64,000 nt of DNA from a virus (taxonomy: Duplodnaviria; Caudoviricetes). Both the position numbers and the translations under genes were made by a program. The stretch lies in IMG/VR virus record IMGVR_UViG_3300029286_000011; one strand, 5' to 3'. Below are positions 8,818 through 58,151 of the stretch, piece by piece. The notes beneath the pieces are model-generated. The model searched no databases, was not told the DNA's origin, and saw only the letters and a program-made list of their open reading frames with translations. Each line of letters opens with the position of its first letter. Position 1 is the first letter of the stretch.

Positions 8818-8843
8818 AGATTTAATTAGCGCTAATTACATCT
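8818..8843. repeat. 26-bp intergenic palindrome, copy 1 (one mismatch)
   Basis: AGATTTAATTAGCGCTAATTACATCT between the fibre gene stop (8855) and the radical SAM RBS. Confidence 0.95.
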
Positions 8844-8854
8844 CCGCCGGGTCA

Positions 8855-10564
8855 CTAGTCGTCTGGATCGCAAGTGCACGCAGGATCCCTGCCGCAGCCT
8901 TCATCCTCAGGACATGGTATGTCTGCACAGTCGGGATCACAACCCTCACATGTGCAGTCTACGCAATTAGGCTCACAGCCTGTCTGTTCGCACACGCAAT
9001 CAGTACAGTTAGGCTCACATTCCTCGCAATGGCAATCTTCCGGAGATCCGCATTCGTCACCATCGCAGTCACAGTTACAGTCACCAGTACTGCAATTAGG
9101 CGAGCAGCTGCCGCCAGATTCATTGCTACAATCAGCTGCGGCGCAGTTAGGCCAACAGGCCTCCTCGTGATCGCAGTCAACCGGATCGTCTTCAGGACAG
9201 CCATCATCTGTGTCACACTGGCACGTAGGGTCAGATCCACAGTGCTGAAATGTTTGAGAGATCTCGGTAACAGAAATGCTTGCACTCCATGAATAGCGTG
9301 CAGCAGCCAAACCCTGGCACCATATCGTCAGATACGGCCCTTCTTCAGGAGTTGCTGAAGGATTAACCGGTGAGACAGTTACCTCCATCCCAAGACTTGC
9401 AACAGAGCTATCATCGGTGAACAATACTTCGTTAGTAGGCGAGCCAACAAGCTCAGCCACACCGTCACTAGCCATCTTAACCACGCCACGCATTTCCCAT
9501 ACGGTTGAGTATCGACTATAGTCGATAGCACCAGCGTGAATTACAAAAGCCCACAGCTTGTCAGCCGTCATCTGTAGTCTACTACCGTTTAGGGTTATTT
9601 CTGTCCAGTTATCATCTTCCGTCTGTGCATAGCCTACGGCTGTAAAGCGACGCACATACGGACCAATTCCCTGAGCAACTGAGGCAAAAATATCGTTTTT
9701 TGTGAATAACCCTGATGTTATCCCGTACGGTGCAGTGACATTATTGGTATAGCCGGAGACTGCAGCGTAGCGGGCCTCGCCGGCTATACTGTTAGCAAAG
9801 CCGCCCAAAACAGCACTGTAATCGCCTAGGTTTAAGTTGCTGACGCCGCCCAGGATAGCCGCATTTTCACCACTTAAGATATTTGATTGGCCTCCGAGAA
9901 TTGCAGCACTTGTTCCAGTGTTCTCGTTATAATATCCGCCCAGCAGTGCCGAATATTCGCCGCGAGCTCTTTGATTGTCGTTACCGCTTAGAAGTTGCAG
10001 ATCTACTGATCGATGACCTAGATTTGTGGTTCCGCCTGTTCTAATGCTGCCTGTGCCGTTGGGGGTTAAGATTATGTCTTTGTTGCCCGTTGTAGTGACA
10101 ATAGCGTATCCGGCTGTATTCAAGTTAGCCGTCAACGTGCTTGTCACGCCGCCTTGCGGTCCTTGTGCGCCCTGCGCACCTTGTGCGCCCTGCGCACCTT
10201 GTGCGCCGTTATTTCCCTGATTGCCTTTAAGACCCTGCACACCCTGTGTACCTTGCGTACCTTGGCTGCCCGCAGCCCCGGTAGCGCCCTGGACGCCTTG
10301 TGTGCCTGCGCCAGTGGCCCCTTGAGCCCCTTGGCTGCCTTGAGCGCCCTGTACACCTTGTGTGCCTTGAACACCCTGACTTCCAGCAGCACCACCTGCA
10401 CCCTGAGCCCCCTGCGGACCTTGCGTACCTTCGCCACCGCCACCGGACTCTAGTGCGTCAGCAATGGCTATGAAGTTGTCATTCAACGCCGAGCCGGCAG
10501 CGCCAGTGGGCGTTGGCGAGACAATGAGCAGTCCTTTGTAGTATTGCAGCGTCGGTGTAGACAT
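8855..10564 (-). CDS. Collagen-like tail fibre/adhesin with YadA-head-like repeats and a C-terminal Cys/Asp/Glu-rich domain
   Basis: About 30 G-X-Q-type triplets. Repeats of the form S/A-A-I-L-G-G-x-x-N resemble left-handed beta-roll adhesin heads. The last 128 aa contain 30 Cys. CACGGAGG RBS. Confidence 0.8.
   Translation of the reverse strand: MSTPTLQYYKGLLIVSPTPTGAAGSALNDNFIAIADALESGGGGEGTQGPQGAQGAGGAAGSQGVQGTQGVQGAQGSQGAQGATGAGTQGVQGATGAAGSQGTQGTQGVQGLKGNQGNNGAQGAQGAQGAQGAQGPQGGVTSTLTANLNTAGYAIVTTTGNKDIILTPNGTGSIRTGGTTNLGHRSVDLQLLSGNDNQRARGEYSALLGGYYNENTGTSAAILGGQSNILSGENAAILGGVSNLNLGDYSAVLGGFANSIAGEARYAAVSGYTNNVTAPYGITSGLFTKNDIFASVAQGIGPYVRRFTAVGYAQTEDDNWTEITLNGSRLQMTADKLWAFVIHAGAIDYSRYSTVWEMRGVVKMASDGVAELVGSPTNEVLFTDDSSVASLGMEVTVSPVNPSATPEEGPYLTIWCQGLAAARYSWSASISVTEISQTFQHCGSDPTCQCDTDDGCPEDDPVDCDHEEACWPNCAAADCSNESGGSCSPNCSTGDCNCDCDGDECGSPEDCHCEECEPNCTDCVCEQTGCEPNCVDCTCEGCDPDCADIPCPEDEGCGRDPACTCDPDD
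10161..10207. repeat. 18-bp tandem repeat (about 2.6 copies) inside the collagen region
   Basis: ccttgtgcgccctgcgca x2 plus a partial copy, encoding (GAQ)n on the minus strand. Confidence 0.9.
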
Positions 10565-10585
10565 CTATCAACCTCCGTGTTTAGT

Positions 10586-11094: not shown

Positions 11095-11096
11095 TA

Positions 11097-12047: not shown

Positions 12048-12055
12048 AAAGCTAC

Positions 12056-13855: not shown

Positions 13856-13865
13856 CCGTCCGTGT

Positions 13866-14483: not shown

Positions 14484-14493
14484 AAAGGCTCCT

Positions 14494-16137: not shown

Positions 16138-16166
16138 AGGCCTATTCTACCAGGAAACCTGATAGC

Positions 16167-16743: not shown

Positions 16744-16745
16744 GG

Positions 16746-17306: not shown

Positions 17307-17310
17307 AGTG

Positions 17311-18261: not shown

Positions 18262-18269
18262 ATATCACC

Positions 18270-18737: not shown

Positions 18738-18768
18738 GGCAAACCTCCTTGCCTGCACGGTTTGACCG

Positions 18769-19936: not shown

Positions 19937-19954
19937 CGGTTTTCCTCCTCGAAT

Positions 19955-19972
19955 GTAATTAGCGCTAATTAC
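19955..19972. repeat. Intergenic palindrome, copy 2 (18-bp perfect core)
   Basis: GTAATTAGCGCTAATTAC between the baseplate J stop and the RBS of the 19936 gene. Confidence 0.92.
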
Positions 19973-19978
19973 GAGCGC

Positions 19979-21640
19979 TCAAACTTCAATCATATTAGCC
20001 GTACGGACAGAAATTGCAATATCGTCTTCGCTGATGAACAGGGCAATGGTCCGACCACTGGACATATTGTCGTCGTCGGCAGGCAATTCCAGCACATCCG
20101 TAGTGGCCGTGTACTGCAGTTCTCCGTTAGGCTTACGAATCACTGCCAATAGCTCTAGCGCCCGAACATGGGCTGGAGAGGACAGATAGGCGTGTATGAC
20201 ATCGGTCAGAGCCGATGTAGACAGCACATTGGTGAAACCAAGGTTGTGGATGTATGCCGCCAGATCGCTACGGATCGCTGCAACGTCTGGCGTTGTTTGC
20301 CCTGGCGACAGTTCTATGGTGAACGACATGTGCAGGAAGCACGGTATCGGGGCTTTGATCAATATGTCGCCAGCGCCATTCAAAAAGCTGCGACGTGAAG
20401 CCCAATCCTGAATGGCAGCAATATCCGGCATACGCTCCACAGTTACATCGTAGTCCTGCGTCGACACGTATGGCGTTAGTGACGCTGTCGGTGTGGTCGA
20501 ATCAACGAACTGGATAACGGCGGTCTGGAATCGACTGTACGTTGACTCTAGGGCTGTAGCAATGTCGGGAAGTAACCCACCGGATTCAAGTGCGCTTATA
20601 TCAGTGCCGCGCACGTCGCTGTAGACTGCGAACGTACCGCTATCTGTGCTGCCAGAAGCCACAATACGTGAGGCATAGTAGAAGCCTGGGGCCTCTTCAC
20701 GATCAATCGAAAACTGCCACAGGCCGCCGCTTCCGTCGCTAGCACGTCCAACATATGTGGCTGTCTTGGCTAGCATAGTGCTGAGTGGTCGGATACGTGT
20801 ACGTACGTACCAGTCTGTGCAGCCACCAACAGAGCACGGCATAAGGCTATGCTGATCTCGCAGCATTCCAGCATCGCCCATTCCAAGTATCGAGTCCGAC
20901 AGTATCTGCGGAAAGGCAGAAGCATCCCTGATCGCGGCACTCATATGGGCGCGACCACCACAGGTCTTAACTGTCAGACCATCGGACAGTCGAGCGATAA
21001 GATCCGTATTGGTCTCCTCGTCGCGGCCATCAGAAAAGTCTGAAGTGACGTAGGCTTTGACAAAGTACGACGGCTGCGGAATGACACTCAACTCAGTGCC
21101 ACGCAACAGCATGTAGCTACTGCCGACTGAGGCAGCCACAAGCTCAATAGTAAAGCTGTAGTTGCCGTCACTCAACTCCTGCAACACGCGGTCCTGATCA
21201 GACACAACATTATCAACAGATGTGCGCGCAGAGAAACTAGCGGCAGTGGTAAACTGCAGACCATTGGCCTCAAAGAGCGTACCCGCCGCTATTGTTACTG
21301 GCTGCAATGCATTGAGCTGAATGGTGACTGTGCCGCCAGCGAAGCTACCTGCACTTCTTACAACGCCGTGGTTGTAGAGTACGGCATCCACCAGATCGTC
21401 TGAGACGAGTGAAGGATTCTCCACCAGGCGTTGCAGGCTCAGAGCATCAGACATGTTTGTCAGCTCGGTCTGGTGCTTAGCTGCAAACATAGCCCCAGGA
21501 ACCAGTAGAAGGCTGCGCAATACGCCTGACCGTAGATCCAGACTAGGATTGTATTCAGCCAGTAGCGCTGTCAGCAATTCAAGCTGCTGCTCAACTAGCG
21601 TAGGATCAAGATCAGAAAAGCTGGCAACATCAGTACCCAT
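19979..21640 (-). CDS. Baseplate J-like wedge protein
   Basis: 553 aa. 'P.LDLRSGVLRSLL', 'GVVRSAGSFAGGTVT', 'IELVAASVG', 'GRDEETNTDLIARL' match the baseplate J/gp6-like layout. Confidence 0.8.
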   Translation of the reverse strand: MGTDVASFSDLDPTLVEQQLELLTALLAEYNPSLDLRSGVLRSLLLVPGAMFAAKHQTELTNMSDALSLQRLVENPSLVSDDLVDAVLYNHGVVRSAGSFAGGTVTIQLNALQPVTIAAGTLFEANGLQFTTAASFSARTSVDNVVSDQDRVLQELSDGNYSFTIELVAASVGSSYMLLRGTELSVIPQPSYFVKAYVTSDFSDGRDEETNTDLIARLSDGLTVKTCGGRAHMSAAIRDASAFPQILSDSILGMGDAGMLRDQHSLMPCSVGGCTDWYVRTRIRPLSTMLAKTATYVGRASDGSGGLWQFSIDREEAPGFYYASRIVASGSTDSGTFAVYSDVRGTDISALESGGLLPDIATALESTYSRFQTAVIQFVDSTTPTASLTPYVSTQDYDVTVERMPDIAAIQDWASRRSFLNGAGDILIKAPIPCFLHMSFTIELSPGQTTPDVAAIRSDLAAYIHNLGFTNVLSTSALTDVIHAYLSSPAHVRALELLAVIRKPNGELQYTATTDVLELPADDDNMSSGRTIALFISEDDIAISVRTANMIEV

Positions 21641-22120: not shown

Positions 22121-22560
22121 TCAGAGCTATCCTTGTTAGCTTTCTCAATACGCTCTAGATAGCCTCGCAGCAGCATCTGGATAGGCCCGCCACTATTACC
22201 ATGACCTGCGGCCCGCCCTGCTGACATAGCCATACAGCGACAGAAGGAACTGTGTCGCAATCTATAGGCTCGCTCCAGCACAGCTATGAAGTCGTGTTGA
22301 AGCTGTACAAGTGCATAATCTCCATCCACACCGATGCTGGACTTACTCTCCAGAATAGACGCCATATCCTGCACTAGCGCGGTTCTGTCGAAGCTGTCGC
22401 TAAGCGACTCCCAGTCCTGCAGATCCGGGGCCTCCCCAGGCGGAACATACCAATCCGACTGACCATTATTGGTCGTCTCTTTACCAAAGGCAGTAGACCA
22501 TTCGCATAAACGGTCTATCTGCTTCAGAAATTCATCTCGCAGTTTGCCTTTGGCCGTCAT
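22117..22560 (-). CDS. Hypothetical protein
   Basis: 147 aa with 4-bp overlaps on both sides. Confidence 0.6.
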   Translation of the reverse strand: MTAKGKLRDEFLKQIDRLCEWSTAFGKETTNNGQSDWYVPPGEAPDLQDWESLSDSFDRTALVQDMASILESKSSIGVDGDYALVQLQHDFIAVLERAYRLRHSSFCRCMAMSAGRAAGHGNSGGPIQMLLRGYLERIEKANKDSSE

Positions 22561-23300: not shown

Positions 23301-23304
23301 GAGC

Positions 23305-33848: not shown

Positions 33849-33876
33849 GAGATGTAATTAGCGCTAATTACATCTC
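33849..33876. repeat. Intergenic palindrome, copy 3 (28-bp perfect)
   Basis: GAGATGTAATTAGCGCTAATTACATCTC between the sheath stop and the tube RBS. Confidence 0.97.
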
Positions 33877-48022: not shown

Positions 48023-48319
48023 CTACACTCCGTCGTTCCACCAGGCCTGCTGGCTCGGTAGCCACGTGGCCTCCTCGCGCCACGTCCGTCCACCGTTGAC
48101 GTTATCACCGCCCCTGGCCACAAAGTGCGCCGACTTTGACGGGTCGATCACGCGAACAAGGTCCGGACCCGAAACGAATCCGTTGTCGCGGACTCCTTCG
48201 GTGACGCAGTTGATGCAGCAGAACACTTGACCCCAGCAGGCACCGCTGCCGAAGTAGGAGCGGCCGTAGATGTGCCCTAACTCCCGCGTCAGGACTACCT
48301 CTTGTACGTTCGTTGACAT
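48023..48319 (-). CDS. Hypothetical protein, 98 aa
   Basis: Start ATG 48319 (MSTNVQ) with AAAGGA RBS and ACTAGCC motif. Confidence 0.6.
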   Translation of the reverse strand: MSTNVQEVVLTRELGHIYGRSYFGSGACWGQVFCCINCVTEGVRDNGFVSGPDLVRVIDPSKSAHFVARGGDNVNGGRTWREEATWLPSQQAWWNDGV

Positions 48320-48357
48320 CGCAAAATTCCTTTGGCTAGTGACTATAAACACAAAAC

Positions 48358-48556
48358 AGACCGAAAGGTCTGATAATTGGCGCCTGCCGCAAGTAGGGAG
48401 ACCTACGGCAGGTTCGTTGCACAGGTACCGTAGCAGGCCTGGAGTTATCCAAGCCTCCACAGCGTAAAAGCAACGAAGGACTGCAATGCCGGACTGCAGT
48501 CATAAGATGGCAGCGACCTCAGAACTATGTCCGGTCGCCGCGTATTAAGGCGGTAC
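48358..48556. ncRNA. Candidate structured RNA or leader
   Basis: Hairpins at 48358-48371, 48383-48412, 48435-48456 (enclosed by an 8-bp helix 48413-48420/48470-48477), 48479-48501 and 48513-48538. Confidence 0.45.
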
Positions 48557-48588
48557 TAAGCTAAAGTCGATATGCCAAGGAGATTGGA

Positions 48589-48614
48589 AGATGTAATTAG
48601 CGCTAATTACATCT
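48589..48614. repeat. Intergenic palindrome, copy 4 (26-bp perfect)
   Basis: AGATGTAATTAGCGCTAATTACATCT between the capsid-operon terminator and the accessory region. Confidence 0.97.
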
Positions 48615-48691
48615 CTGATCCGTGGCAGCGACGATAGCTAGTTAGCGCCTCCAATATAGTATGACGCGTTTTGGGCCTTTATTTACCAATG

Positions 48692-48729
48692 AAAAAAGCC
48701 GGCAGGTGCCTCATGCACCCACCGGCTTT
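48692..48729 (-). terminator. Intrinsic terminator of the capsid operon
   Basis: AAAGCCGG..GGTGC/GCACC..CCGGCTTT followed by TTTC on the minus strand, just after the 48748 gene. Confidence 0.8.
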
Positions 48730-48747
48730 GCCAACCTTCCGTGGTTG

Positions 48748-49101
48748 TCAGACGCGGTATTCCATCTCCGAATCGGTCAGGCTCGTAAGCCAGCACGGTG
48801 CGGCGACAGCCAGCGTGTTGTTATTCAGCACGAGCATCTGGGACTGATCCAGAGTAGCATCGTACAGAATAGGAGCAGGAGTCGACACAAGCTCAAGCCA
48901 CCCAGCTTCGAGGGCCTCGAAGAACTTCTGCACGCCACGGGCGCCGAAGATCCGACCAATGGTATCGACGACATGGCCGCTAATCGAGACTTCCTCGTTG
49001 TTGTCCAGCTCAGCCCCGTGGGGCGGCACAATGCTAATCTTGCGCTTCGAGCCGGCAACATTGCGAATGGTGGACACCAAACAGCTGATATCAACAGCCA
49101 T
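48748..49101 (-). CDS. Small virion-associated protein
   Basis: 117 aa, CACGGAGG RBS, last gene of the capsid operon. Confidence 0.65.
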   Translation of the reverse strand: MAVDISCLVSTIRNVAGSKRKISIVPPHGAELDNNEEVSISGHVVDTIGRIFGARGVQKFFEALEAGWLELVSTPAPILYDATLDQSQMLVLNNNTLAVAAPCWLTSLTDSEMEYRV

Positions 49102-49166
49102 GGTTTTCCTCCGTGATCATCCACACTTGCTAACAGCCTCGCGGCCGTTCGAAAAAGCTGGCAATG

Positions 49167-49607
49167 TTACTGGCCAGCCGCCAAAAGTTCTTCCTGCGCA
49201 GTCTTGAGCAACAGTGCCGAATTGTAGATGGTCGGGTTCTGGGCGAGTTCCCAGGCAGCGGCCATCGCAGCATCCGTACGATTGGTCTCGTTAGCGCTCT
49301 TGATAGCGCCCGACACAGGGCTGTCTTGCAGCACATTGTGCAGAGCTTGCTCGGCCACGGCGAACGGGTCAGCCTGGGCCGGCGCTGTCTCAGCAGTCTT
49401 GGTCGCCAGCATCAACGTGGCGGCAGTATTCATCATGCGCTGAACCTGCTCCTCGTTCTCCGGCTGGTACCCTCGACTGGCGAGTTTGGAAAAGAAGACG
49501 CGCTTGTGCACACCTTCCATGACGTTATGGAAAGCCACTTTGATAAGCTCTTCGCTATTCGGAGCTTCCTTCGGAGTGACTTCCGTATTGCTGTTCGCAG
49601 TCGACAT
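49167..49607 (-). CDS. Putative internal head protein (K-x-A motifs)
   Basis: Likely start ATG 49607 with GGAG RBS; KTAE, KSAN, KTAQ. Confidence 0.6.
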   Translation of the reverse strand: MSTANSNTEVTPKEAPNSEELIKVAFHNVMEGVHKRVFFSKLASRGYQPENEEQVQRMMNTAATLMLATKTAETAPAQADPFAVAEQALHNVLQDSPVSGAIKSANETNRTDAAMAAAWELAQNPTIYNSALLLKTAQEELLAAGQ

Positions 49608-49688
49608 GAGTTTCTCCGCAGTCGATAGCACAACGAGATCCGCCAAGGCTGATTTACATCAGCCAAGGCGGACTCGCGAGGGGTGTCA

Positions 49689-50630
49689 TCAGATGAACTC
49701 GGCTCGGGCCACGGCGTTGGTATTGCCGATGGTGCAGCCGTTCTCTTCGTACGCAAAGAACTCAATCATGAAGGCTTTGCGCTCGATGAACATCGTGACC
49801 GGTTCCAACTCAAAATGCTTGCCAAGGAACTTCGGGTCGGCAAACAGGTAGATGTTGTTCGTCTCGACGATGTCCTTCTTGATCGTGACGATCCAGTCGA
49901 TGCCCATGAAACGCTGCAGCGACCAACCATCACGCATCACATCCATCGACAAGTCGCCGCCCATTTCGTCTCGGCGGAACTTACCAACTTCCTTGATGGT
50001 CAGCATATTGCAGACCGCCAACTTGGTCTCAAGGCAGCTGGGCGTCGAAGGCAGAATCTTCAGCATGTCCCAGAGGCTGTCGCGGTTGATCCCGCCGCCG
50101 ATCTGTTCGTACTGAGCCACACCGGACGTGGGCAAAATGACACCAGGGCCAACAATAGCGTTGTTGACGGCCCGGAACCATTTGGCGTCCTCTTCCGCCA
50201 ACATGTCCTTGATAGCATTATCAGAGAACACCTGGCGAATATCCATGACCCAAGTACGCAACTCGGACACGTCCTTGGTGAAGCGGGTCGTCATGATCCG
50301 CTCGAAACCAACGGGGTAGCGAGGTCCCTTGATGTACATGTTGCTGGGCAACATGGCGAAAGGAACGCTGACAGCCGCCGGAGAATCCGGTTCCTTGTCG
50401 ATGATCTTGATCGGCTTGTCGTCTTCGATCATGCGGTCAAGGTCGTCGGTGATAGTCACCGGCGGGAGAATCTTTCGGAGGACGCCATCTTCACGCATCT
50501 TGTAACGCGTGTAGTCGTTGGCGGCATCCACAGCTTCTTTGCGCTGTTGCCAATCGGTAGAACCGAGCTTTTCGCAAAGCACCCGGTTGACCACCTTCGG
50601 GTCCAGGCCTTCTTCCAAAAGGGCGCTCAT
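49689..50630 (-). CDS. Major capsid protein (HK97-fold inferred)
   Basis: 313 aa from ATG 50630 with CACGGAGG RBS. Strongly biased codons. Order is protease-scaffold-decoration-MCP. 'DMLAEEDAKWFRAVN', 'FLGKHFELEPVTMFIERKAFMIEFFAYEE'. Confidence 0.8.
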   Translation of the reverse strand: MSALLEEGLDPKVVNRVLCEKLGSTDWQQRKEAVDAANDYTRYKMREDGVLRKILPPVTITDDLDRMIEDDKPIKIIDKEPDSPAAVSVPFAMLPSNMYIKGPRYPVGFERIMTTRFTKDVSELRTWVMDIRQVFSDNAIKDMLAEEDAKWFRAVNNAIVGPGVILPTSGVAQYEQIGGGINRDSLWDMLKILPSTPSCLETKLAVCNMLTIKEVGKFRRDEMGGDLSMDVMRDGWSLQRFMGIDWIVTIKKDIVETNNIYLFADPKFLGKHFELEPVTMFIERKAFMIEFFAYEENGCTIGNTNAVARAEFI

Positions 50631-50675
50631 ATGCACCTCCGTGTTAGCTAAGTTTCAGTGGTGTCCGTACCAATA

Positions 50676-51266
50676 TCAGCTTTCGAGACCGCTGACGCTA
50701 GTCGTCAGCTTCGGCAGCCAGACAGGCCAGAAGGCCAGGACATTGCGACGGAAAGTGTTCGCACGAACGGCGCGGCTGACCACACCGCAAATCGGCTTCT
50801 CGTAAGCAGCGGCCCTGGTAATACGGCCACCAGTAGCGGCATCCGTGTTGCTAGCAACGGCCGTGAGGCAGTCACCAGGAGCATAGGTGTCGCCAAGAGA
50901 CGACTCGGGTTCGAACTCCGTGGTCTCCAGCTCCATGGCCGCAGCGGCGGCAAAGCCACCGATGTTGCCAGAGGGCGTGGCCGCCACGTAGACGTCGGCC
51001 TCGGTGGCCGGATCGCCGCCACCGACGGTGACGTCGTTGTCGGTCGAGGTCTGGAAGAGGAAGATCGCCATGTGACCAGCCTGCACAACGTCAGGCAGCC
51101 CCATCTCGTAGTCCCCGTCCGCATTCAAGTGAGCCACGCGACCGCCCCACACTTGGTCGATGGTCACAACAGACGCAAGCTTCGCCACGAAGTCCACCGC
51201 TTGCTGGCTCGGCCAGCCCTTCAGCGGGTTCAGACCGTGGACAGTCATTTGGGTAGGAGTCTTCAT
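50676..51266 (-). CDS. Head decoration/cement protein
   Basis: 196 aa, beta-rich, immediately upstream of the MCP, CACGGAGG RBS. Confidence 0.65.
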   Translation of the reverse strand: MKTPTQMTVHGLNPLKGWPSQQAVDFVAKLASVVTIDQVWGGRVAHLNADGDYEMGLPDVVQAGHMAIFLFQTSTDNDVTVGGGDPATEADVYVAATPSGNIGGFAAAAAMELETTEFEPESSLGDTYAPGDCLTAVASNTDAATGGRITRAAAYEKPICGVVSRAVRANTFRRNVLAFWPVWLPKLTTSVSGLES

Positions 51267-51309
51267 ACTGCTGTTCCTCCGTGAAAAGAAATCGTCGGTG
51301 GACGAAAGG

Positions 51310-51756
51310 TCAGCTCGTCAGACCAAGCTTAGACAGGAAAGCTTGATCAGCCGCGCTGGGAGCTCCACGCTCACCGATGTAGTTAGGGTTGGTTCGACCA
51401 ACAGCTGAGGCGCTCTTTTCGGGAACGCCACGGCCCTGCTGAAGCATGGCCACTTTTTGCTGCAGCTCAGTAATCTGAGCGGCGTGTGCCGTACGTTCGG
51501 CTGCCAACTTTTGGCAAATACGGCGAATGACACGTAGCGTCCCAGGATGCTGGTTCAGGGTCTCTTCGGCCAGCTTCGATTCCTTCTCAGGGTCGAACAA
51601 CTGCACGGAGACCATCGCCTTGAGCGCCTCAGGGATGGCCGAGGTAACTTCCGCAGCTTGCTTCTCTTGTTGAGCAACAAGGTCCGAAGCCGCAGCAGCA
51701 ATCTTTCCCGTAGTCTCGACATAGCCGAGCACTTGGGTAGTCAATGCTTTATCCAT
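51310..51756 (-). CDS. Putative internal head/scaffold-associated protein
   Basis: 148 aa, helical; EKQAA, EKSAS. Confidence 0.6.
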   Translation of the reverse strand: MDKALTTQVLGYVETTGKIAAAASDLVAQQEKQAAEVTSAIPEALKAMVSVQLFDPEKESKLAEETLNQHPGTLRVIRRICQKLAAERTAHAAQITELQQKVAMLQQGRGVPEKSASAVGRTNPNYIGERGAPSAADQAFLSKLGLTS

Positions 51757-51779
51757 GGAATCCTCCGCAATATCGATGC

Positions 51780-53027
51780 TTACTTACCGCACAGGTCAGT
51801 AATAGACTTGAGAATGGCCTGAAACTGTTGAGCCTGTGCCGCATTCTTCGGTTGCCACTTGGGCTTAGCCGAAGCCTGCTTGTTGGCCATTTGAACGAGT
51901 TTGGCAGCTGCCTTGGCCTGAACCGCAGCAGGATCAACGTTGGCCTGCGACAAGGCTTCCTGCAGCATTGCAAGCAGATCGGCTTGCTGACCTTCACCGC
52001 CGGCCATGCCGGCAAGAGCAGCGTCGCCACCTACGTCGCCCATCGGGGGCATTCCCTCAGGGCCTGCGCCCATCGGAGGCTCTCCCATCGGAGGAGCGCC
52101 ACCACCGCCGGCCCCGCCAGCGCCCTGCAGAAGCTGCAGCAGGAGCTCAGGAGGGATCTCGTCGCCGCCACCGGCCATTCCCGCAGGAGCAGCGCCTGGC
52201 ATGTCGCCCATCGGGGCTTCCGCCGCAGGATCTTCCGTCATCGAAGGCTCAGACGACTCGGTCTCTTCCTTCGGAGGCTTCGGATCCTCTTCTTCGGAGT
52301 CTTCACACTCCTCGGCCTGCTTCTGCGCTTGTGCGAAAAAAGCATCGTAGTAGTCTGCCAGCTTGGTAGCAGCTTCGTCGGCTATCAAGATGGTGTCGCG
52401 CAGAGACGTGACAACACCAGCCACTTCGGCTTGCTTGTCATTGGCCGCAGCACCAACAACGGCTTGAGCCAAGGCGGCACCGGCCTGAGAAGCAGCCTTG
52501 GAAGGCTGAGCCGGCTTCTGAGCTTCCTTGTTCGAGGAGTCAAACGCCACAGCCAGCTTCGCAAGGATGCTTGTCCCCTGCGCATTGGCCTGATTGATAA
52601 GCGTTCGAAGCTCAGCAAACTTCTTCCCGTCTAACGAACTGTTGTCGGTACGGGCGGGGTGGCTGGATCCGGGATCGTCCTTCTCGGATTTGGCCGAGGA
52701 GGTTTCGTTGCTCGGATCTTCGCCAGTGGCCGCAACGGTAGCTCCGATATTCATCTGGAACTGATCCTGCGTACCAGGCGTGTTTTCCTTGGCGTTGTTG
52801 ACGCCAATGGGTTGATCATCCTTGTTGTCCTTTTCGTTCTCCGAAGAACGAGCACCTTCTTGCGCAGGTGCAGTTCCATCATCGACGTTCTTGGACGGAT
52901 GGGTCGTAGCGCCGCCAATGTTAGCGGGCTCACTGTTTGCCGAAGCCGACTTCTCCGGATTAACTTGCTGCAGCAAAGCAGCAATGCTGTTCCGAAGACT
53001 GGCTTGCTTATTGAACAAAGTAGTCAT
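51780..53027 (-). CDS. Putative scaffolding/inner-body protein
   Basis: 415 aa. Acidic and Gly/Pro/Met low-complexity blocks, at least eight K-x-A motifs, between protease and capsid genes. Confidence 0.6.
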   Translation of the reverse strand: MTTLFNKQASLRNSIAALLQQVNPEKSASANSEPANIGGATTHPSKNVDDGTAPAQEGARSSENEKDNKDDQPIGVNNAKENTPGTQDQFQMNIGATVAATGEDPSNETSSAKSEKDDPGSSHPARTDNSSLDGKKFAELRTLINQANAQGTSILAKLAVAFDSSNKEAQKPAQPSKAASQAGAALAQAVVGAAANDKQAEVAGVVTSLRDTILIADEAATKLADYYDAFFAQAQKQAEECEDSEEEDPKPPKEETESSEPSMTEDPAAEAPMGDMPGAAPAGMAGGGDEIPPELLLQLLQGAGGAGGGGAPPMGEPPMGAGPEGMPPMGDVGGDAALAGMAGGEGQQADLLAMLQEALSQANVDPAAVQAKAAAKLVQMANKQASAKPKWQPKNAAQAQQFQAILKSITDLCGK

Positions 53028-53072
53028 CCTTGAAATCTCCGTAGGATGATGAATGTGCTGTCTCGCAAAGTG

Positions 53073-54596
53073 TTACGCGACAACCTTATTTTGCAGGACT
53101 ACACATTCAAGTGTCAACGGTAATAGTTCTTCGGGCGTAGCCATACTGGCCAGGGCAGACAACTGATACAGGGCATACTGCTCTGCAATCTTCTGCGCCA
53201 ACTCTCCACATGCCCCTGATTTGATCAACGTACTTTTGGAGCGCAAACGTGTTTCTGCGTCCTTATACAAGGCAGCTCGTTGCGCACGATCTACGATTGA
53301 AGACAGCTCAAGCGAATGATCTCGGGTGAACTTATCAGCCCAGCTGCGCCGTTGTGCTGAGACCGGACCAACAGTAACGGCAAACGCACTTGAGGCAATC
53401 TTCGTGTAAACCACTGGATCCGAAGCCAGTCGGCCAAAAACACCAGGCAGTTCGTCTTCCGACAGCGATAAAAGCTGTGCTGTCTTTTCACGGTTATCTC
53501 CGGTTAACAACCGGACAAAATCGCGGAACGGCAAAAGTACTCTCCGGCTAGCCATGGCTGCTAGCTTCAAGTTTACCTCACCGGTATCCAGCGGTCCCAA
53601 TTCTCGAATCTCTATCGGGCGCTGCTTACTCTCAGCTAGACCCAGGGCAAGAGCCTTGTGTCGTTCCGTCGTGTTTCCTTCCATAGCCGTCTCAAGCTGC
53701 GCCAGTTTGTGCAGCAAGACAGCCTGCTTCTGCGATGCCTTCTGATCGTTAAGGCGCAGTATTGTTCCGTAGCCGTTCTGATTGGCGTATATCTCGGCCA
53801 GTTCGGCACCACCGATAACATGACCAGCGCTGGCTGCCTTTGTCATGTAGTCGGCTTTAGCACCCCAGGCACTAGGATCGGCAGGACGCCCGACCTTGGA
53901 TATATCGAACCATCCGGGATTGGGATTGTCCACAAATTGCTGCAGACCGTCCCATGCCAATTTGGTGAGTCCGTCACGGCAGCCAAACATACGTCGGCCA
54001 GTTTCCGGACTGATGCACGTATCTTCAGTGCAGTACTCACTTCGATTGGCTGCCTTGTTATGGCAGTTTTGGCAGACATCGTAGTCGATTGTAGTGGCCA
54101 TGCTCCACGGCAGGGCGTCACCACGGTTCAAGGCATGCAGGTCGTCGTCAGGCATCACAAGACCGCCGTTACGTTCGGCAGCTTCCTTGGTGCCATTGCC
54201 GACAACTAGCAGCTCAATCCTGCGCATTGGCTCGTTGTATGCGGATGCAGCAACCTTGCCATAGCTCTTGTCAGGATCTTTGTTTTTGTGATTTCGGTAG
54301 TAACGGGCCTTAGTAACAAAGCGACCATGATGCTCACGGCAATCAGCTTCCTTGAAGCCATCGCCATTGCGATTAGATCCAAAGCCCTCGGTGGCACAGA
54401 CAGCGATCAAATGTATAGGAATGTCGCCACGGGCAATCTTGACGTTCTCAAGTGCCTTCGTCAGGGCATGATCAGCGCGCTTTAAGAATACGGCGCGGTC
54501 ATGATTGGCAAGGCCACCGCTGGCCATCTTTACCAGTTGAGCGGGTTCTTCCGTCAACCTATCCCATGAGCCTACGCCTACAATTTTGTGCATCAT
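53073..54596 (-). CDS. Prohead maturation protease
   Basis: GSNRNGDGF, RNHKNKD (putative His), IELLV, WSM (putative Ser), DVCQNC...YC Zn-like insert. This is the pattern of large-phage prohead proteases; a C-terminal extension follows. Confidence 0.75.
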   Translation of the reverse strand: MMHKIVGVGSWDRLTEEPAQLVKMASGGLANHDRAVFLKRADHALTKALENVKIARGDIPIHLIAVCATEGFGSNRNGDGFKEADCREHHGRFVTKARYYRNHKNKDPDKSYGKVAASAYNEPMRRIELLVVGNGTKEAAERNGGLVMPDDDLHALNRGDALPWSMATTIDYDVCQNCHNKAANRSEYCTEDTCISPETGRRMFGCRDGLTKLAWDGLQQFVDNPNPGWFDISKVGRPADPSAWGAKADYMTKAASAGHVIGGAELAEIYANQNGYGTILRLNDQKASQKQAVLLHKLAQLETAMEGNTTERHKALALGLAESKQRPIEIRELGPLDTGEVNLKLAAMASRRVLLPFRDFVRLLTGDNREKTAQLLSLSEDELPGVFGRLASDPVVYTKIASSAFAVTVGPVSAQRRSWADKFTRDHSLELSSIVDRAQRAALYKDAETRLRSKSTLIKSGACGELAQKIAEQYALYQLSALASMATPEELLPLTLECVVLQNKVVA

Positions 54597-55828
54597 TTCG
54601 GTTGTACCTTATCCTTAAATCGCTGCGCAAAATTAGACGAACCGCCCCATATCGCCGGCAAAACGAGACCAAGCAAGCTGGGCAATTTCTTTACCATGCC
54701 GGCACGCCCGACCCTAGACAGGCCACGTACCTGGGAATTCGAAAGGGTCGGCATATATTTGTTGGGCAGTGAGGGATCGTGCTGATCGGCCACGGCAGAC
54801 AGCTGCGCCCTTAGTCGCGTAAACCACGAGGCATTCGTTAGTTCTTGCTTGAGCAATGCCTGAGCTTCGGTTGCCAGTCGTTGTTCTTCTACTAGCGACT
54901 TGATCCTATCATTAACGTGCTTCACGTTATCAGAGACAGTCTTACCCATACTGTGATAATCTGCCAAGATCTTAGGATCATTCACTTTGGCATCTTGCAG
55001 CTTCTTTATCAGGCCGTTGGTGTCCTTGTGCAGGGTCGAAAAAAGGCCTTCGTTTGTACTTGCTGCCGCTAGATCACTGGCAATTTCGGCAGACGACCGC
55101 AGGGGTATGCCTTCTGTAGGGTTAAACACGTCGAAACGATGTGTAGGCTGTGTTAACCAAGACTTGCCAAATTCAAAAGGCTTTTCGGCAGTACCTGTTA
55201 TAACATTTGAAATATTACTTGGGTTGAATCTGCGAATCATCTCGGCCAAACCAAACAAGCCTGCACCGATTGGCATTTTTCTAGCCACATCGCCCACCAA
55301 CGTAGGCTGTGCTTGTGCTGCCTCCTGGCTACGTCTAGTCAGCTCGTCAACCGCTGGATTGCCTGTGGTGGCATTTGGAGCCGCAGCAGGTGCAGCCGGT
55401 GTTACAGGTGCTGCTGGAGCTGCCGGGCCGCTAGAGGCAGCAGGAGCCGATGCTGACTCCTCAAGCTTCCTCTTGATAACCTCGTTCCAGTCCTTGCCTG
55501 TAGGCGTGCCAGGAAGCCCTTGGTAGGCCTTATACGCCAAACCAGCGCCACCACCAAGCAATCCACCGGACAGCGCCCCAGTCAGCATGGACTTGGGCAT
55601 ATTACGTTCTTCCTCGTCGCCCGCCAGGCCGGTGAGTCCACCAAGCAACGCCCCGCCACCAGCGCCCAGCAAAGCGCCGGCAATAGGCGTATGGTTTGTG
55701 GCAAACTCTTTGAGCTGTTCTATAGCATCAGCCTGCTTCTCTGCCCGTAAGGCTTGGGCCGTAGATGCAATAGCCGCCAACTTGCGTGCCGCGTCTTGAA
55801 CGCTGCCTTCAAACAAAGATTGAATCAT
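54593..55828 (-). CDS. Putative internal/ejected virion protein with glycine-zipper segment
   Basis: Likely start ATG 55828. GALLGAGGGALLGGLTG and GALSGGLLGGGAG glycine zippers after EKQA; Pro/Ala linker. Confidence 0.6.
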   Translation of the reverse strand: MIQSLFEGSVQDAARKLAAIASTAQALRAEKQADAIEQLKEFATNHTPIAGALLGAGGGALLGGLTGLAGDEEERNMPKSMLTGALSGGLLGGGAGLAYKAYQGLPGTPTGKDWNEVIKRKLEESASAPAASSGPAAPAAPVTPAAPAAAPNATTGNPAVDELTRRSQEAAQAQPTLVGDVARKMPIGAGLFGLAEMIRRFNPSNISNVITGTAEKPFEFGKSWLTQPTHRFDVFNPTEGIPLRSSAEIASDLAAASTNEGLFSTLHKDTNGLIKKLQDAKVNDPKILADYHSMGKTVSDNVKHVNDRIKSLVEEQRLATEAQALLKQELTNASWFTRLRAQLSAVADQHDPSLPNKYMPTLSNSQVRGLSRVGRAGMVKKLPSLLGLVLPAIWGGSSNFAQRFKDKVQPK

Positions 55829-57173
55829 CGTGCAGTACCTCGGCACCCTTGGTTCTATCTAGCCCGATGGCTTCCGTCTGCCGCATCGTTTTCTCGATGT
55901 TGGCAATCTGCTCAGCCTCAAACGGCGCGACAGCGCCTTGTGTCAGCCGCTGACGTAACAAAGGTCGCATAATAGCTGGCTGGCTCGATACGTGCTGGCC
56001 CAGCTGAGCGATCTCGTTGTAGGCCGACAACACTTCATCAGGCTCGTGGCTGCTGATAACTTCATCGTTGTCCAGAAAGTCCTGCAACATGGCTCGCGCA
56101 TAGATCTGGCGTATCTCATTCTGATCGCCAGGAGTCGCAAGCTCGTCTGCAATAGACGAAGACATTTCACCAGGAGTCTTATCAGCGCCAGTCTGTCGGC
56201 CCCAGTTAGCTACGCCCGCCGTCATACCGCCCATCAGAGCCGGAAAAAAGTTCGCTTCTTTCATCGTCGAAGAGTCCTGAAAGACAGACGAGCATATCTC
56301 GGCGTGTGATGGGCTCAACACAAAAGGGCGCAATTCGTCCTCCGCTACGTTGAACATAGCCATCTTGCAGTGTCGCTTTTCGGCTTCGGCCTTGTTGACG
56401 GCCTGGGCGCACTTGATCACATTGTGAATCAAGTTGTACGGCTCTTGTGTTTCAGCCACAGCAGTCAGCCTTGGCTTGAATGCAGCCTTACGCAACTCAA
56501 GATATTCGTTGCTCGCGTAGGCAATATCCATAGCTAGCTTGGCTGGAGGGCCAAACAACTGACAGGCATAGTATTCAACTTCCGGTGTCTGAAGCCGGGC
56601 TATAGACGACTTTCGGAAGTAGTCATTCATCTCTTTTACCGACTCTCGGAAGTTATCGGTAAACCTGGCGGCAACAGAGCTCGCGTATTCGTAAGCCTGC
56701 TTGGCCTTCGTAATGGCCTTCATCGGCTGCTTCTTTGCCGCCGGCTTCTTATTGGCGCAGGCTGCTTCCTTCTCAGTAAGCAACGACGGCAGCTTGGTTG
56801 ACCATACGCCTGTTGAAGACTCAGGCCACGGATCAGGCGGTCGATCATACTCATCGGACACAGACAGAGCCGGCTCAGCTGAGGCGATCTTTTCCGGGTA
56901 CAGTCTGGCCATGATGTTCTCGATACGAGCAATCGGGAACTCGGCCAATTTCTCAAGAACACCGGTGTTCTGTTCACGCTGATACGCAGACCGGCCGACG
57001 TTGAAGGATCGAACAAGCAGTGGAATGTACGTGGAAGGTAGCCTGTGATCGGTGGCCACCTTAACAATGGCGTCATCAGGCGACACACCGTCGTCTGTGA
57101 TAGACGCCATGCATTCTCGCACAGCTCCAACTAGCCGATCTTCAGCGGCCTTATCAAAGGGGGCAACCGCCAT
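55809..57173 (-). CDS. Putative internal head protein (K-x-A motifs)
   Basis: ATG 57173 with AAGGAG RBS; DKAA, EKIA, EKEA, MKEA. Confidence 0.6.
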   Translation of the reverse strand: MAVAPFDKAAEDRLVGAVRECMASITDDGVSPDDAIVKVATDHRLPSTYIPLLVRSFNVGRSAYQREQNTGVLEKLAEFPIARIENIMARLYPEKIASAEPALSVSDEYDRPPDPWPESSTGVWSTKLPSLLTEKEAACANKKPAAKKQPMKAITKAKQAYEYASSVAARFTDNFRESVKEMNDYFRKSSIARLQTPEVEYYACQLFGPPAKLAMDIAYASNEYLELRKAAFKPRLTAVAETQEPYNLIHNVIKCAQAVNKAEAEKRHCKMAMFNVAEDELRPFVLSPSHAEICSSVFQDSSTMKEANFFPALMGGMTAGVANWGRQTGADKTPGEMSSSIADELATPGDQNEIRQIYARAMLQDFLDNDEVISSHEPDEVLSAYNEIAQLGQHVSSQPAIMRPLLRQRLTQGAVAPFEAEQIANIEKTMRQTEAIGLDRTKGAEVLHDDSIFV

Positions 57174-57174
57174 G

Positions 57175-58125
57175 TCACGCTCCTTGCTTAACGAATATCT
57201 CGGCACCGGGCATCGGCTCTAGCGTAATAGTCTGATCATTACTGATCAGCAGCGTTTCTTCGGCCCGCAACTCAGCAGCCGTTTCGGCAAATGGCTGCAG
57301 CGACTTGATCTGATTCTTCAGCGCTTCCTGACCGATCAACCACGGCAATGTGGTTAGGGACGCATGAACATTGGCACCCAGGTTCTGCCGTTGTGTATCG
57401 ACGTGACCAATACGATCATCATAGGCCTGTTTGAGCCGCGCTGTAATGTCAAACAACTGCATCACATTCAGACGGTTCACCTGAAACACACGGGCGGCTA
57501 TAGTCGATTTCCTAAGGAGGTAACGTTCCCAACAACGAAACATCCAGTCGTGGACCTGATGCTGCGTTGTTGGGAGTCCTTCGTGTGTGCCGGCAAAAAT
57601 GATTGCGTCGAGTACAACAGGCCCGCCAAAATAGCCAAACAGCTTATACAGCATTCCAGCGTAAGCGACGTCACTTTCAGTCGGCGCTTGGTGAATGGCA
57701 AAGTCACGAAGCACCGTGGTGAAGATGTAGTCTTTGAACGGCAGCCTGTCTCTAACATTGAAATATAGCTTCTCATACCAGTCCACGGAGGCTAGCGGCA
57801 GGCCGCTGTAGCTGTAAATTGAGTAATCATCCTGACCAGCCAAGATACGGGCCTGTAACACCTCACGCTTCAGCACATCCGGCCCAAAATGCATGTTGTA
57901 TGCTAGGGCTATCGGAATGAAGCGACCCAGTACAGCGTCCTGTGCCTCAGCCGTAGCTGCGTCCCTGTACTGCTTGAGGAATCGGTTGTATTGCCGTATA
58001 GAATCGTCGTCGCCACGGCGAGAAGGATTACCACGAGGCGAACGCTCTACCAGCTGGGCAACACGCTGATGCCGCCAGGAAGGGTTGCGAAACGGGTTCA
58101 GTTGTTGGAATTCTGAAGTGAGCAT
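57175..58125 (-). CDS. Hypothetical protein
   Basis: 316 aa. Its ATG abuts palindrome copy 5. Confidence 0.65.
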   Translation of the reverse strand: MLTSEFQQLNPFRNPSWRHQRVAQLVERSPRGNPSRRGDDDSIRQYNRFLKQYRDAATAEAQDAVLGRFIPIALAYNMHFGPDVLKREVLQARILAGQDDYSIYSYSGLPLASVDWYEKLYFNVRDRLPFKDYIFTTVLRDFAIHQAPTESDVAYAGMLYKLFGYFGGPVVLDAIIFAGTHEGLPTTQHQVHDWMFRCWERYLLRKSTIAARVFQVNRLNVMQLFDITARLKQAYDDRIGHVDTQRQNLGANVHASLTTLPWLIGQEALKNQIKSLQPFAETAAELRAEETLLISNDQTITLEPMPGAEIFVKQGA

Positions 58126-58151
58126 AGATGTAATTAGCGCTAATTAAATCT
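58126..58151. repeat. Intergenic palindrome, copy 5 (one mismatch)
   Basis: AGATGTAATTAGCGCTAATTAAATCT, the exact reverse complement of copy 1. Fills the whole gap between the TAG (58150-58152) and the ATG (58123-58125). Confidence 0.95.

Follow-up and report, generated by a model that had tools for sequence, protein, structure and literature searches.

The Cluster O mycobacteriophages (Corndog) carry a 17-bp dyad-symmetric repeat at about 34 sites per genome; neither their host nor other phages contain it (Cresawn et al. 2015, PMC4351075). This repeat is G+C-rich (TGTTCGGNNNCCGAACA), has a 3-bp spacer and is the same in all members of the cluster; it is found in a 70-kb siphovirus without an RNA polymerase (RNAP) of its own. 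Many copies occupy short gaps between genes or lie close to gene starts, others are intragenic, and the asymmetry at the centre of the repeat is independent of transcription direction; the authors propose a dimeric binding protein (PMC4351075). Other conserved phage motifs are transcription signals, such as the 20-bp phage-RNAP promoter motif of LUZ19 and the 61 sequence-conserved intrinsic terminators of phiKZ, which are directional and combine a G+C-rich stem with a downstream TTAT (Putzeys et al. 2024, PMC10914365).

Here we examine a palindrome that recurs in a 64,000-nucleotide stretch of phage DNA (the window) and in the 185-kb record of the same phage (G000). The phage is uncultured, comes from lake water and has genes for an RNA polymerase of its own. 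As a dispersed dyad-symmetric repeat the palindrome belongs with that of Cluster O, in a class that is descriptive and implies no mechanism: both are invariant inverted repeats that are private to a lineage, located mostly at gene junctions and independent of orientation. Unlike the Cluster O repeat, it is A+T-rich, differs between lineages, is regularly spaced and occurs in the order terminator, palindrome, start codon.

Promoters for the phage RNAPs of the T7 group are 23 bp long. The palindrome resembles phage-RNAP promoters in that it spans about 20–26 bp, is nearly invariant and lineage-specific, occurs only a few times per genome, occupies short gaps before genes and is A+T-rich around the start. 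Those promoters, however, are asymmetric, directional and served by single-subunit RNAPs, whereas here a palindrome accompanies a multisubunit RNAP. The virion RNAP of phage N4 uses three early hairpin promoters with a stem of 5–7 bp and a 3-nt loop, where the extruded hairpin is read by a single-subunit enzyme. N4 thus shares with our phage an inverted repeat in a (putative) phage promoter, but here the genome has at least 14 copies, and pairing shows no sign of being selected.

The KorB operator OB of the IncP plasmid RK2 is a palindrome of 13–16 bp that is read by a dimer at about 12 sites, some promoter-proximal and others distant or intragenic. Its half-site style (TTTAGC...GCTAAA) and the spread of its copies over the replicon are similar to what we observe; our copies lie at a much shorter distance from start codons than class I OB sites do from their genes, and a ParB or KorB gene was detected neither in G000 nor in three relatives out of the four with complete or near-complete genomes. 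REP/REPIN elements are species-specific extragenic palindromes that are G+C-rich and imperfect, number in the hundreds and are linked to a RAYT gene. They are likewise dispersed between genes, but G000 has no RAYT gene. Like phiKZ, our phage has a jumbo genome, encodes a multisubunit RNAP and carries one conserved hairpin-forming intergenic motif; unlike the phiKZ terminators, this motif is A+T-rich, lacks a T-run, varies in stability and is placed after canonical terminators.

A palindrome dispersed between genes

The exact 16-bp core TAATTAGCGCTAATTA occurs five times in the window (8823–8838, 19956–19971, 33855–33870, 48594–48609 and 58131–58146), once at each of the sites named in the original prediction. 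The expected number is 0, and 100 dinucleotide shuffles yield no match. The perfect 26-bp form is present at 33850–33875 and 48589–48614, whereas copies 1 and 5 (8818–8843 and 58126–58151) each carry a single mismatch, the two being mirror images, and the palindromic span of copy 2 is just 18 bp (19955–19972). The copies were also said to be A+T-rich in G+C-richer DNA; indeed, the core is 75% A+T in a window that is 50–61% G+C.

Open reading frames (ORFs) on the minus strand flank all five copies on both sides, and the copies themselves are mapped without a strand. Copy 1 (8818–8843; core and palindrome search, ORF map) lies 11 nt past the stop of a collagen-repeat tail-fibre-like gene (8855–10564, minus strand); on that strand, GGAGGGG and then the start codon (ATG, 8806) of a radical SAM gene follow. 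Copy 2 (19951–19976; core search, ORF map) lies 7 nt past the stop of a Baseplate_J-like gene (19979–21640, minus strand), and GAGGAGG and the ATG (19936) of a 100-aa ORF follow. Module boundaries had been proposed for three copies; of the two copies compared with their neighbours, copy 1 directly precedes the radical SAM gene and copy 2 comes directly after the Baseplate_J-like gene. Copy 3, a perfect 28-bp palindrome (33849–33876; core and palindrome search, folding, ORF map), separates a 933-aa ORF upstream (33884–36685, minus strand) from a 163-aa ORF downstream (start 33827, GGAGG ribosome-binding site). Copy 5 (58126–58151; palindrome search, ORF map, homologue alignments) constitutes, as had been claimed, the entire gap between two genes: it overlaps the TAG of a 143-aa ORF (58150–58581, minus strand) and abuts the start codon (ATG, 58125) of a 316-aa conserved ORF, where alignments to homologues start from residue 1 and so back this assignment. 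A Shine-Dalgarno sequence has no room there.

Extending the search to the rest of the genome, as the original prediction proposed, reveals 14 copies in the 185-kb record (13 exact cores and one with one mismatch), which mark gene junctions about every 12 kb; a reversed-pattern control gives 0 matches in this record. The claim of strictly intergenic placement is accurate for the five copies in the window, but genome-wide it applies to 13 of 14, with one copy inside a 934-aa ORF. Such placement in G000 could simply reflect the motif's stop codons, which on either strand fall in two of the three frames. Nearly all G000 genes share one direction. Sequence conservation is symmetric out to 26 bp, with no further conserved position within 30 nt on either side, and positions +18 and +19 from the core start are A and T in all 14 copies. 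Eight of 12 copies overlap the upstream stop codon or begin at most 11 nt from it, and the distance from the core end to the start codon ranges from 1 to 44 nt.

The palindrome is the sole word family strongly enriched in G000 intergenic DNA and, single chance matches aside, is absent from unrelated phages and bacteria. The prediction was to fail if the sequence proved to be an assembly or adapter artefact. It is not an assembly artefact because contigs from three lake-water sequencing runs, which may include the source sample and are not fully independent, span copies 4 and 5 and carry the palindromes without differences. A search for RNA runs that contain this phage gave none.

Palindromes of related phages

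A search of related phages, also part of the original proposal, uncovered four relatives of about 200 kb that have the same multisubunit RNAP. Each carries a different A+T-rich (quasi-)palindrome at similar places, with 42 copies in G002, 25 in G003, 18 in G004 and 22 in G006 (fewer than 0.2 expected in each). The genomes have 50–69% G+C, and most of the copies lie just upstream of a start codon and its ribosome-binding site. Because each relative likewise uses its own palindrome, the motif is a real lineage-specific DNA signal, and palindrome use is a property of the whole phage group.

Spacing is more regular than chance in all five genomes (CV 0.42–0.65 versus about 0.95 for random placement, P ≤ 0.03), and motif positions are not significantly shared between distant relatives. 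Junctions hold 57% of the G002 copies versus roughly 6–8% non-coding DNA, and about 18 of the 42 lie mid-gene in long genes such as that for RNAP β. The G006 motif has a fixed asymmetric centre that occurs in both orientations (14 versus 8) before co-directional genes, and the G003 motif exists in two mirror forms.

G000 encodes its own RNAP β and β′ genes as well as a sigma-70-like protein. The NADFDGD catalytic motif is located at residue 2103 of a 2197-aa ORF (G000:138306–144899), and an 1804-aa ORF downstream carries the remainder of β′ (PF04998 in homologues). Caudovirales that encode a multisubunit RNAP with β and β′ homologues and NADFDGD have been described as mReC-type phages (PMC7481178), to which G000 can be assigned by gene content and motif.

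Half-sites and transcription context

Over the whole genome, seven of the 28 half-sites have T in place of the G beside the core, and no copy has it on both sides. The mirrored substitution in copies 1 and 5, previously taken to suggest copying between sites, is therefore real but is a common half-site variant, and copying is not needed to explain it. In none of the four genomes tested does the complementarity of left and right halves exceed that of halves re-paired at random (P = 0.14, 0.064, 0.999 and 0.82), and the G003 halves exhibit anti-correlation instead. For G000, 78.1% of cells are paired versus 76.5% in shuffles, a level that 115 out of 500 shuffles attain. The core-adjacent pair, 8/25, is broken in seven of 14 copies without a compensating change, and only pair 4/29 covaries; the covarying outer pair is A–U in seven copies and G–C in five (one-sided P of about 0.02 before correction). 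Predicted hairpin energies differ about three-fold among copies (−4.8 to −14.2 kcal/mol), the perfect copies folding well (−14.2 kcal/mol, z-score −6.3), and copy 2 prefers a different fold.

A hairpin of RNA or DNA selected for pairing does not match this pattern, since there is no excess complementarity and stability is not conserved; the cruciform and mRNA-hairpin options raised earlier are weakened accordingly. Independent half-sites, varying hairpin strength and the use of both orientations in one relative instead point to duplex DNA read by a symmetric protein. What the data show is a real palindrome that is invariant and A+T-rich, bound to junctions, regularly spaced and specific to each lineage, and constrained in sequence rather than in pairing.

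Copy 4 (48589–48614; palindrome search, folding, terminator scan) lies, on the minus strand, about 80 nt past a strong intrinsic-terminator-like hairpin of 15 pairs (nine G–C) with a T-run (48695–48729, minus strand), which closes the gene at 48748–49101. Directly after this copy comes a structured stretch of about 240 nt (48347–48588, minus strand; z-score −8.6, no shuffle equally stable), a candidate stand-alone non-coding RNA unit that ends in a terminator-like hairpin (48357–48372) and T-run; the next ORF starts at 48319. This unit matches no Rfam family and has no homologue in the relatives.

Three copies have an intrinsic-terminator-like hairpin and T-run that end 6–14 nt upstream of the palindrome, and a start codon 17–20 nt downstream of it, although the third such hairpin was seen by eye and by script only. 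Another promoter has no space at these copies because terminator and start codon are too close. In several copies that directly follow an intrinsic terminator, the start codon is 0–31 nt from the palindrome. By a crude count over the five genomes, 31 terminator-like hairpins lie upstream and 18 downstream of copies, and the copy at G000:61381 is a counter-example with a terminator-like hairpin 15 nt downstream.

The palindrome itself is not an intrinsic (Rho-independent) terminator: its stem is A+T-rich, and its downstream flank, (C/A)AT(C/T)(T/C), lacks a T-run. A terminator scan calls none of the copies covered, yet it does call true terminators beside three. Nor does it resemble a sigma-70-type promoter, given that its TAATTA hexamers are symmetric, without flanking conserved positions and 4 bp apart, compared with the 16–18 bp between −35 and −10 hexamers; a sigma-70-like promoter scan calls no site at copies 4 and 5.

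Candidate functions of the palindrome

Because terminators precede the palindrome, start codons follow closely and one copy heads a non-coding unit, we favour a phage-private promoter or transcription-unit start signal, with a probability of roughly 0.4. The palindrome would be a phage-private cis signal in double-stranded DNA. Its reader, a phage-encoded factor that is symmetric and probably a dimer, would bind two TAATTAGC half-sites with centres about one helical turn apart. The palindrome would mark the starts of transcription units as a promoter or promoter-core element for the phage multisubunit RNAP, with DNA opening in the A+T-rich arms and RNA starting in or just past the downstream arm, near the A/T at +18/+19. 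The resulting leaders would be 0 to about 45 nt long, leaving two or three copies nearly leaderless. The variable distance between core and start codon fits leaders of varying length and does not fit an upstream activator site or a translational element at a fixed place. Each lineage's palindrome presumably co-evolves with its reader. Protein binding, the phage origin of the protein and transcription start at the palindrome are all three what we infer from sequence features. Among the functions originally listed, a dimeric-factor site or a phage-RNAP promoter fits best with the symmetric independent half-sites, the lineage-specific versions, the terminator–palindrome–start order and the non-coding unit. 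Against a promoter, perfect symmetry gives no direction whereas the genes run nearly one way, and G006 uses both orientations, G003 has mirror forms and G002 has mid-gene copies.

Regular spacing in all five genomes would suit a DNA-organising role equally well. A global operator, or a site at which a dimeric DNA-binding regulator or clamp loads, like KorB–OB or ParB/Noc–parS/NBS, would repress, insulate or organise DNA without acting as a promoter, and would accommodate the independently varying half-sites, the irrelevance of orientation in G006 and G003 and the mixture of junction and mid-gene sites in G002. The KorB OB site (TTTAGCSGCTAAA) and the Noc site have A/T-rich arms and a 4–6 bp G/C or mixed centre, a style that the palindrome resembles, and in G006 two motif copies 1 kb apart flank the gene for a genuine ParB (ParB_N and HTH_ParB domains). 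We nevertheless consider this reading somewhat unlikely. ParB_N (PF02195) has no match in G000 (89% complete), G002, G004 or G005, no KorB-like protein is found, and a ParB–parS or KorB–OB system is recognizable only in G006; among 150 G000 proteins, the sigma-like one alone belongs to a helix-turn-helix family. Furthermore, the sites lack a separate promoter motif, for which three copies have no room, and the junction enrichment in G000 and G002 exceeds what purely organisational sites would be expected to show.

An RNA hairpin between cistrons, acting as a phage-specific terminator, an endoribonuclease processing site or a stabilising or coupling hairpin, would explain why all copies are intercistronic on the transcribed strand, mostly near or over the upstream stop, why perfect copies fold well and why one outer pair covaries, and phiKZ provides a precedent (PMC10914365). 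It is distinctly unlikely given the absence of a T/U-run, the canonical G+C-rich terminators directly upstream of several copies, the A+T-rich stems in genomes of up to 69% G+C, and the failure of stability and pairing to be conserved, as seen in copy 2, the re-paired and G003 halves and the core-adjacent mismatches. We judge very unlikely a selfish or copy-paste repeat (REP/REPIN- or MITE-like), or a recombination or nicking site of a phage enzyme, with no role in gene expression. Fourteen identical copies of 16–26 bp at positions mostly unshared with distant relatives are easier to reach by insertion than by point mutation, and two copies 1.1 kb apart flank the gene for a conserved 298-aa zinc-cysteine protein for which a language-model search gives a weak placement near clusters of replication initiators (REP_ORF2-G2P). 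This family, however, has no invariant HUH motif and no Pfam family, and the relatives' genes are not motif-flanked. G000 has no match to PF01797 (Y1 transposase/RAYT) or PF23343, and thus no REP/REPIN–RAYT system; nothing is conserved beyond 26 bp, and target duplications are absent. Matches in unrelated phages and bacteria stay at chance, and selfishness predicts neither regular spacing nor A+T-richness kept in five lineages. The earlier suggestion of a mobile element or recombination site thus gains no positive support, yet positions do turn over between relatives.

Literature searches covering promoter motifs of phages and the group itself turned up no published account of how transcription starts are chosen in these phages, and the paper that defines the group does not mention promoters. 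The RNAP of the group branches deep in the polymerase tree. The palindrome family is an obvious entry point because it is the sole strong non-coding signal in five genomes. If it is a promoter, it is of an unusual symmetric kind and, because its sequence differs per lineage, would offer a compact set of orthogonal parts. A new promoter class for deep-branching multisubunit RNAPs is a tentative and doubtful proposition: a short A+T-rich palindrome, a dimeric specificity factor and a per-lineage code would yield very short or leaderless messages and a re-start every 5–12 kb in an almost one-directional 200-kb genome. If the palindromes instead form an operator or organiser network, KorB/ParB-like genome-wide control would extend to phages without a recognisable ParB. 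Either way, the motif would delimit transcription units and help to spot members of this group in metagenomes.

Palindrome copies in the window and the phage genome

The 16-bp palindromic core TAATTAGCGCTAATTA occurs exactly five times in the window, within copies 1 to 5 at positions 8818-8843, 19951-19976, 33849-33876, 48589-48614 and 58126-58151. All five copies claimed in the original prediction are thus present at their sites with exact cores, and 100 dinucleotide-preserving shuffles of the window yielded no match, even with up to two mismatches permitted. The perfect 26-bp form, in which the core is extended by symmetric conserved flanks, is seen in copies 3 and 4. Copies 1 and 5 each carry one mirrored mismatch, which bears out the claim that two copies share a single substitution in opposite orientations, and the palindromy of copy 2 spans only 18 bp. 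The G+C content of the window is 50-61%.

An assembly artefact had been raised as one way in which the observation could fail. Contigs from three lake-water runs, possibly including the source sample, span copies 4 and 5 and show palindromes identical to those of the window, and therefore the palindrome is no assembly artefact. Strain variation within the lake population is seen at window 58290-58312, where the contigs from runs X2 and X3 differ from the window by a cluster of six SNPs; these lie in the 143-aa ORF immediately upstream of copy 5. The listed runs that contain window stretch 48400-58399 are all DNA, with no RNA run among them.

The window corresponds to 70258-134257 in a virus record of 185 kb (G000) with an estimated completeness of 89%. 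This record contains 13 exact core copies and one copy with a single mismatch. Most crude ORF calls (177 of 199) lie on the minus strand, and 13 of the 14 copies reside at junctions between minus-strand ORFs. The description of the palindrome as strictly intergenic therefore holds for all five window copies but not genome-wide, where one of the 14 (G000:151559) is intragenic. This copy lies inside a 934-aa multi-enzyme (repair) ORF at 149950-152754 (L021:15950-18754), in the linker between a kinase-like module and a LigD phosphoesterase module, and uses its only open frame, which is translated as DVISANYI. Because at least the N-terminal part of this ORF matches a separate, much shorter 184-aa ORF in the relative G003, the sequence comparison suggests that genes fused across a former junction.

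Written in gene orientation, the conserved sequence is (A/G)(G/A)A(T/C)(G/T), core, (C/A)AT(C/T)(T/C). Conservation is symmetric around the centre and has sharp edges, the flanking 30 nt on each side showing no further conserved position, and G000 carries no isolated half-sites. The word family of the palindrome is the sole family strongly enriched in the intergenic DNA of this genome.

Placement at gene starts, terminators and a non-coding unit

The copies are fitted closely between genes. On each strand the core contains stop codons in two reading frames out of three, and in 8 of 12 junction copies the upstream stop codon is overlapped by the start of the copy or lies no more than 11 nt from it. 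The distance from the core end to the start codon is 1-44 nt, usually with a GGAG-type ribosome-binding site in between. The original prediction had noted that copy 5 stands where a ribosome-binding site would be; indeed, the ATG follows its core by 5 nt, and that after the copy at G000:174376 by 1 nt, leaving no space for such a site. Homology backs both start assignments, as judged from alignments of homologues that begin at residue 1 downstream of copy 5 and from a Pfam epimerase domain that extends from residue 11 downstream of G000:174376. No tRNA gene is directly preceded by a copy. Among the relatives, ARAGORN called a tmRNA beside two tRNAs at G002:23302-23661 and, at G004:89121-89193, a tRNA whose anticodon is CTA.

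Several copies adjoin putative transcription terminators. Tool-called hairpins with T-runs that resemble intrinsic terminators end 6-14 nt upstream of the palindromes at G000:11583 and G000:33372, and a third upstream hairpin of this type, at G000:165402, was identified only by visual inspection and our own script. The reverse case is found at G000:61381, where a terminator-like hairpin lies 15 nt downstream of the copy.

Copy 4 heads a stand-alone, highly structured non-coding unit of about 240 nt (window 48347-48588, minus strand) situated between two terminator-like hairpins. The gene upstream is closed by a terminator of 15 pairs (48729-48695, minus strand), which copy 4 follows by about 80 nt; the unit itself ends in a hairpin and T-run (48372-48357, minus strand), and the next gene starts at 48319. 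The unit contains no ORF and has a folding z-score of -8.6 relative to shuffles; it is a candidate phage small RNA. It matches no Rfam family and has no sequence homologue in the four relatives described below, and a promoter-calling tool called no sigma-70-like promoter near copy 4. The 225-nt gap that follows the variant copy shows no significant structure (z-score -1.6).

Counterparts in RNAP-encoding relatives

G000 encodes a multisubunit RNA polymerase (RNAP) on the minus strand at G000:131494-144899 (L024:7494-20899), a region that reaches window 61237-64000. A 2197-aa ORF carries the NADFDGD catalytic motif near its end and, on account of this position, is read as a fusion of beta with the N-terminal part of beta'. 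Downstream, an 1804-aa ORF encodes the C-terminal part of beta' (beta'C), whose homologues in many relatives carry intein and LAGLIDADG domains. An IMG/VR search with an alignment of beta'C homologues returned 80 loci, most of them in phages of 100-230 kb; four of the phages were taken whole. A megablast search of 20 kb against GenBank phages and a locus search with a single baseplate protein gave no match.

Each of the four relatives has its own hugely over-represented A+T-rich palindrome or quasi-palindrome, for which fewer than 0.2 copies are expected by chance. These motifs are WAGATATCTW in G002 (42 copies; genome G+C 58%), AAACCGGTTT in G003 (25 copies; 69%), AAAACGTTTT in G004, where it extends to about 24 bp (18 copies; 50%), and GGTAATTAAGCACC with at most one mismatch in G006 (22 copies; 57%). 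Thus, the search of the remaining genome and of related phages proposed in the original prediction raised the count to 14 in the record, but the relatives carry their own motifs instead. By beta'C identity, G006 ranks among the nearest relatives, and a TAATTA-GC half is common to its motif and that of G000. More broadly, of the 80 loci (about 22 kb each), 25 contain a repeated A+T-rich palindrome of 10 bp, compared with 7 loci in shuffles. The exact G000 motif is found elsewhere in 12 IMG/VR and 9 bacterial contigs, as single occurrences in sequences unrelated to the phage, which we treat as chance.

The majority of copies in G003, G004 and G006 lie just upstream of a ribosome-binding site and start codon. 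The G002 motif is free of stop codons, and about 18 of its 42 copies are mid-gene, for instance in the gene for RNAP beta. Copies in all five genomes are spaced more regularly (coefficient of variation 0.42-0.65) than under random placement at gene junctions (about 0.95; P values from <0.0002 to 0.03). The positions of the copies mostly differ among these distant relatives: slots common to at least two genomes number 2 against 1.19 expected, which is not significant (P = 0.34). Orthologous slots are confined to the closely related AAAGATATCTTT group and to a few cases, namely the beginning of beta'C (G003, G004 and G006) and that of the 316-aa gene downstream of copy 5 (G000, G002 and G003).

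Candidate readers and possible function

If pairing between the two halves were selected, as for an RNA hairpin, halves within a copy should match better than halves drawn from different copies. No such excess is observed (P = 0.14 for G000, 0.064 for G002, 0.82 for G004 and 0.999 for G003), and in G003 the two halves of a copy tend to differ. Covariation in the G000 palindrome is confined to one outer pair; the core-adjacent position is G-C in seven copies, T/C in four and G/A in three, with no compensated T-A. Predicted RNA hairpin energies vary between -14.2 and -4.8 kcal/mol, with copy 2 adopting a different fold. The G006 motif has a fixed asymmetric centre that occurs in both orientations ahead of co-directional genes, and the motif of each genome is A+T-rich irrespective of overall G+C content. 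Because the halves show no excess of pairing, hairpin strength varies, both G006 orientations occur and A+T-richness is constant, these sequence patterns favour two half-sites in duplex DNA that would be recognized by a symmetric protein, and we consider a hairpin role unlikely.

A Pfam scan of 150 G000 ORFs revealed sigma-70-like, alpha-CTD-like, CsrA (small ORF; E-value 2e-22), PAS and cold-shock domains, the PAS-domain protein also being encoded by a small ORF. The scan found neither a classical repressor-type helix-turn-helix protein nor ParB, and yielded no palindrome-binding protein (reader). The 261-aa sigma-70-family protein (window 22557-23342, minus strand) contains Sigma70_r3 and Sigma70_r4 domains above the Pfam cut-offs; its gene lies within the baseplate/tail block, and the protein shares 40% identity with a G002 ORF.

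Candidates suggested by their position were rejected as readers. The gene for a 134-aa alpha-CTD-like protein with a helical tail (G000:50015-50415, L105:1325-1728, minus strand; PF03118, E-value 5e-12) lies directly after the copy at G000:50451 and starts 31 nt past the palindrome, but this family is absent in G002, G003 and G006, and in G004 the motif stands after the gene rather than before it. Two copies 1.1 kb apart flank the gene for a 298-aa zinc-cysteine protein (G000:50460-51356, L105:1769-2665, minus strand). The family has four invariant cysteines (NCPP ... C ... CPFCW) and homologues in all four relatives, but these are not flanked by the motif, and the protein can be assigned to no family: it has no match in Pfam or PDB or to PF23343, a language-model atlas links it weakly to replication-initiator clusters, and its AlphaFold model (mean pLDDT 52) is too poor for a fold search. 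A fast-evolving specificity factor between the two RNAP genes was also discounted, since the Pro/Gly/Met-rich proteins and small conserved protein encoded there have no DNA-binding signature.

The best single reading, to which we assign a probability of roughly 0.4, is that the palindrome serves as a phage-specific promoter or transcription-unit start signal. Several observations recommend it: the succession of terminator, palindrome and start leaves no space for another promoter, copy 4 heads a non-coding unit, leaders are short and variable, the motif is lineage-specific as well as A+T-rich, and the RNAP is private to the phage. The main objections are the symmetry of the motif, its indifference to orientation, the mid-gene copies of G002 and the regular spacing, all of which fit a KorB/ParB-like operator or organizer network nearly as well as a promoter. 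G006 encodes a genuine ParB protein (ParB_N and HTH_ParB; L166:919-1857, G006:106552-107490, minus strand) whose gene is bracketed by two one-mismatch copies of the G006 motif, 35 nt upstream of its start and 19 nt downstream of its stop. However, ParB is present in G006 only and was rejected as the reader, and such a network is the less probable of the two. The original prediction's proposals of a dimeric-regulator site or a phage RNAP promoter element are preferred over a cruciform or an mRNA hairpin. Its recombination site or mobile element, here a copy-paste repeat or nicking site, seems more doubtful still, and a restriction site was dismissed, as the central hexamers AGCGCT, GATATC, ACCGGT and AACGTT show no avoidance in the rest of their respective genomes.

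The closest descriptive match is a 17-bp dyad repeat of Cluster O mycobacteriophages, which is likewise private, junction-biased and orientation-free, and whose function is unknown (PMC4351075). The terminators of phiKZ are also conserved in sequence, but these are G+C-rich with a TTAT tail (PMC10914365), whereas the motifs of the G000 group are A+T-rich. Promoters are unmentioned in the paper that defines RNAP-encoding phages of the G000 kind (PMC7481178). The palindrome is well established as a feature, and the foremost of its candidate mechanisms is that it would mark, for the private RNA polymerase of the phage, where transcription units start.
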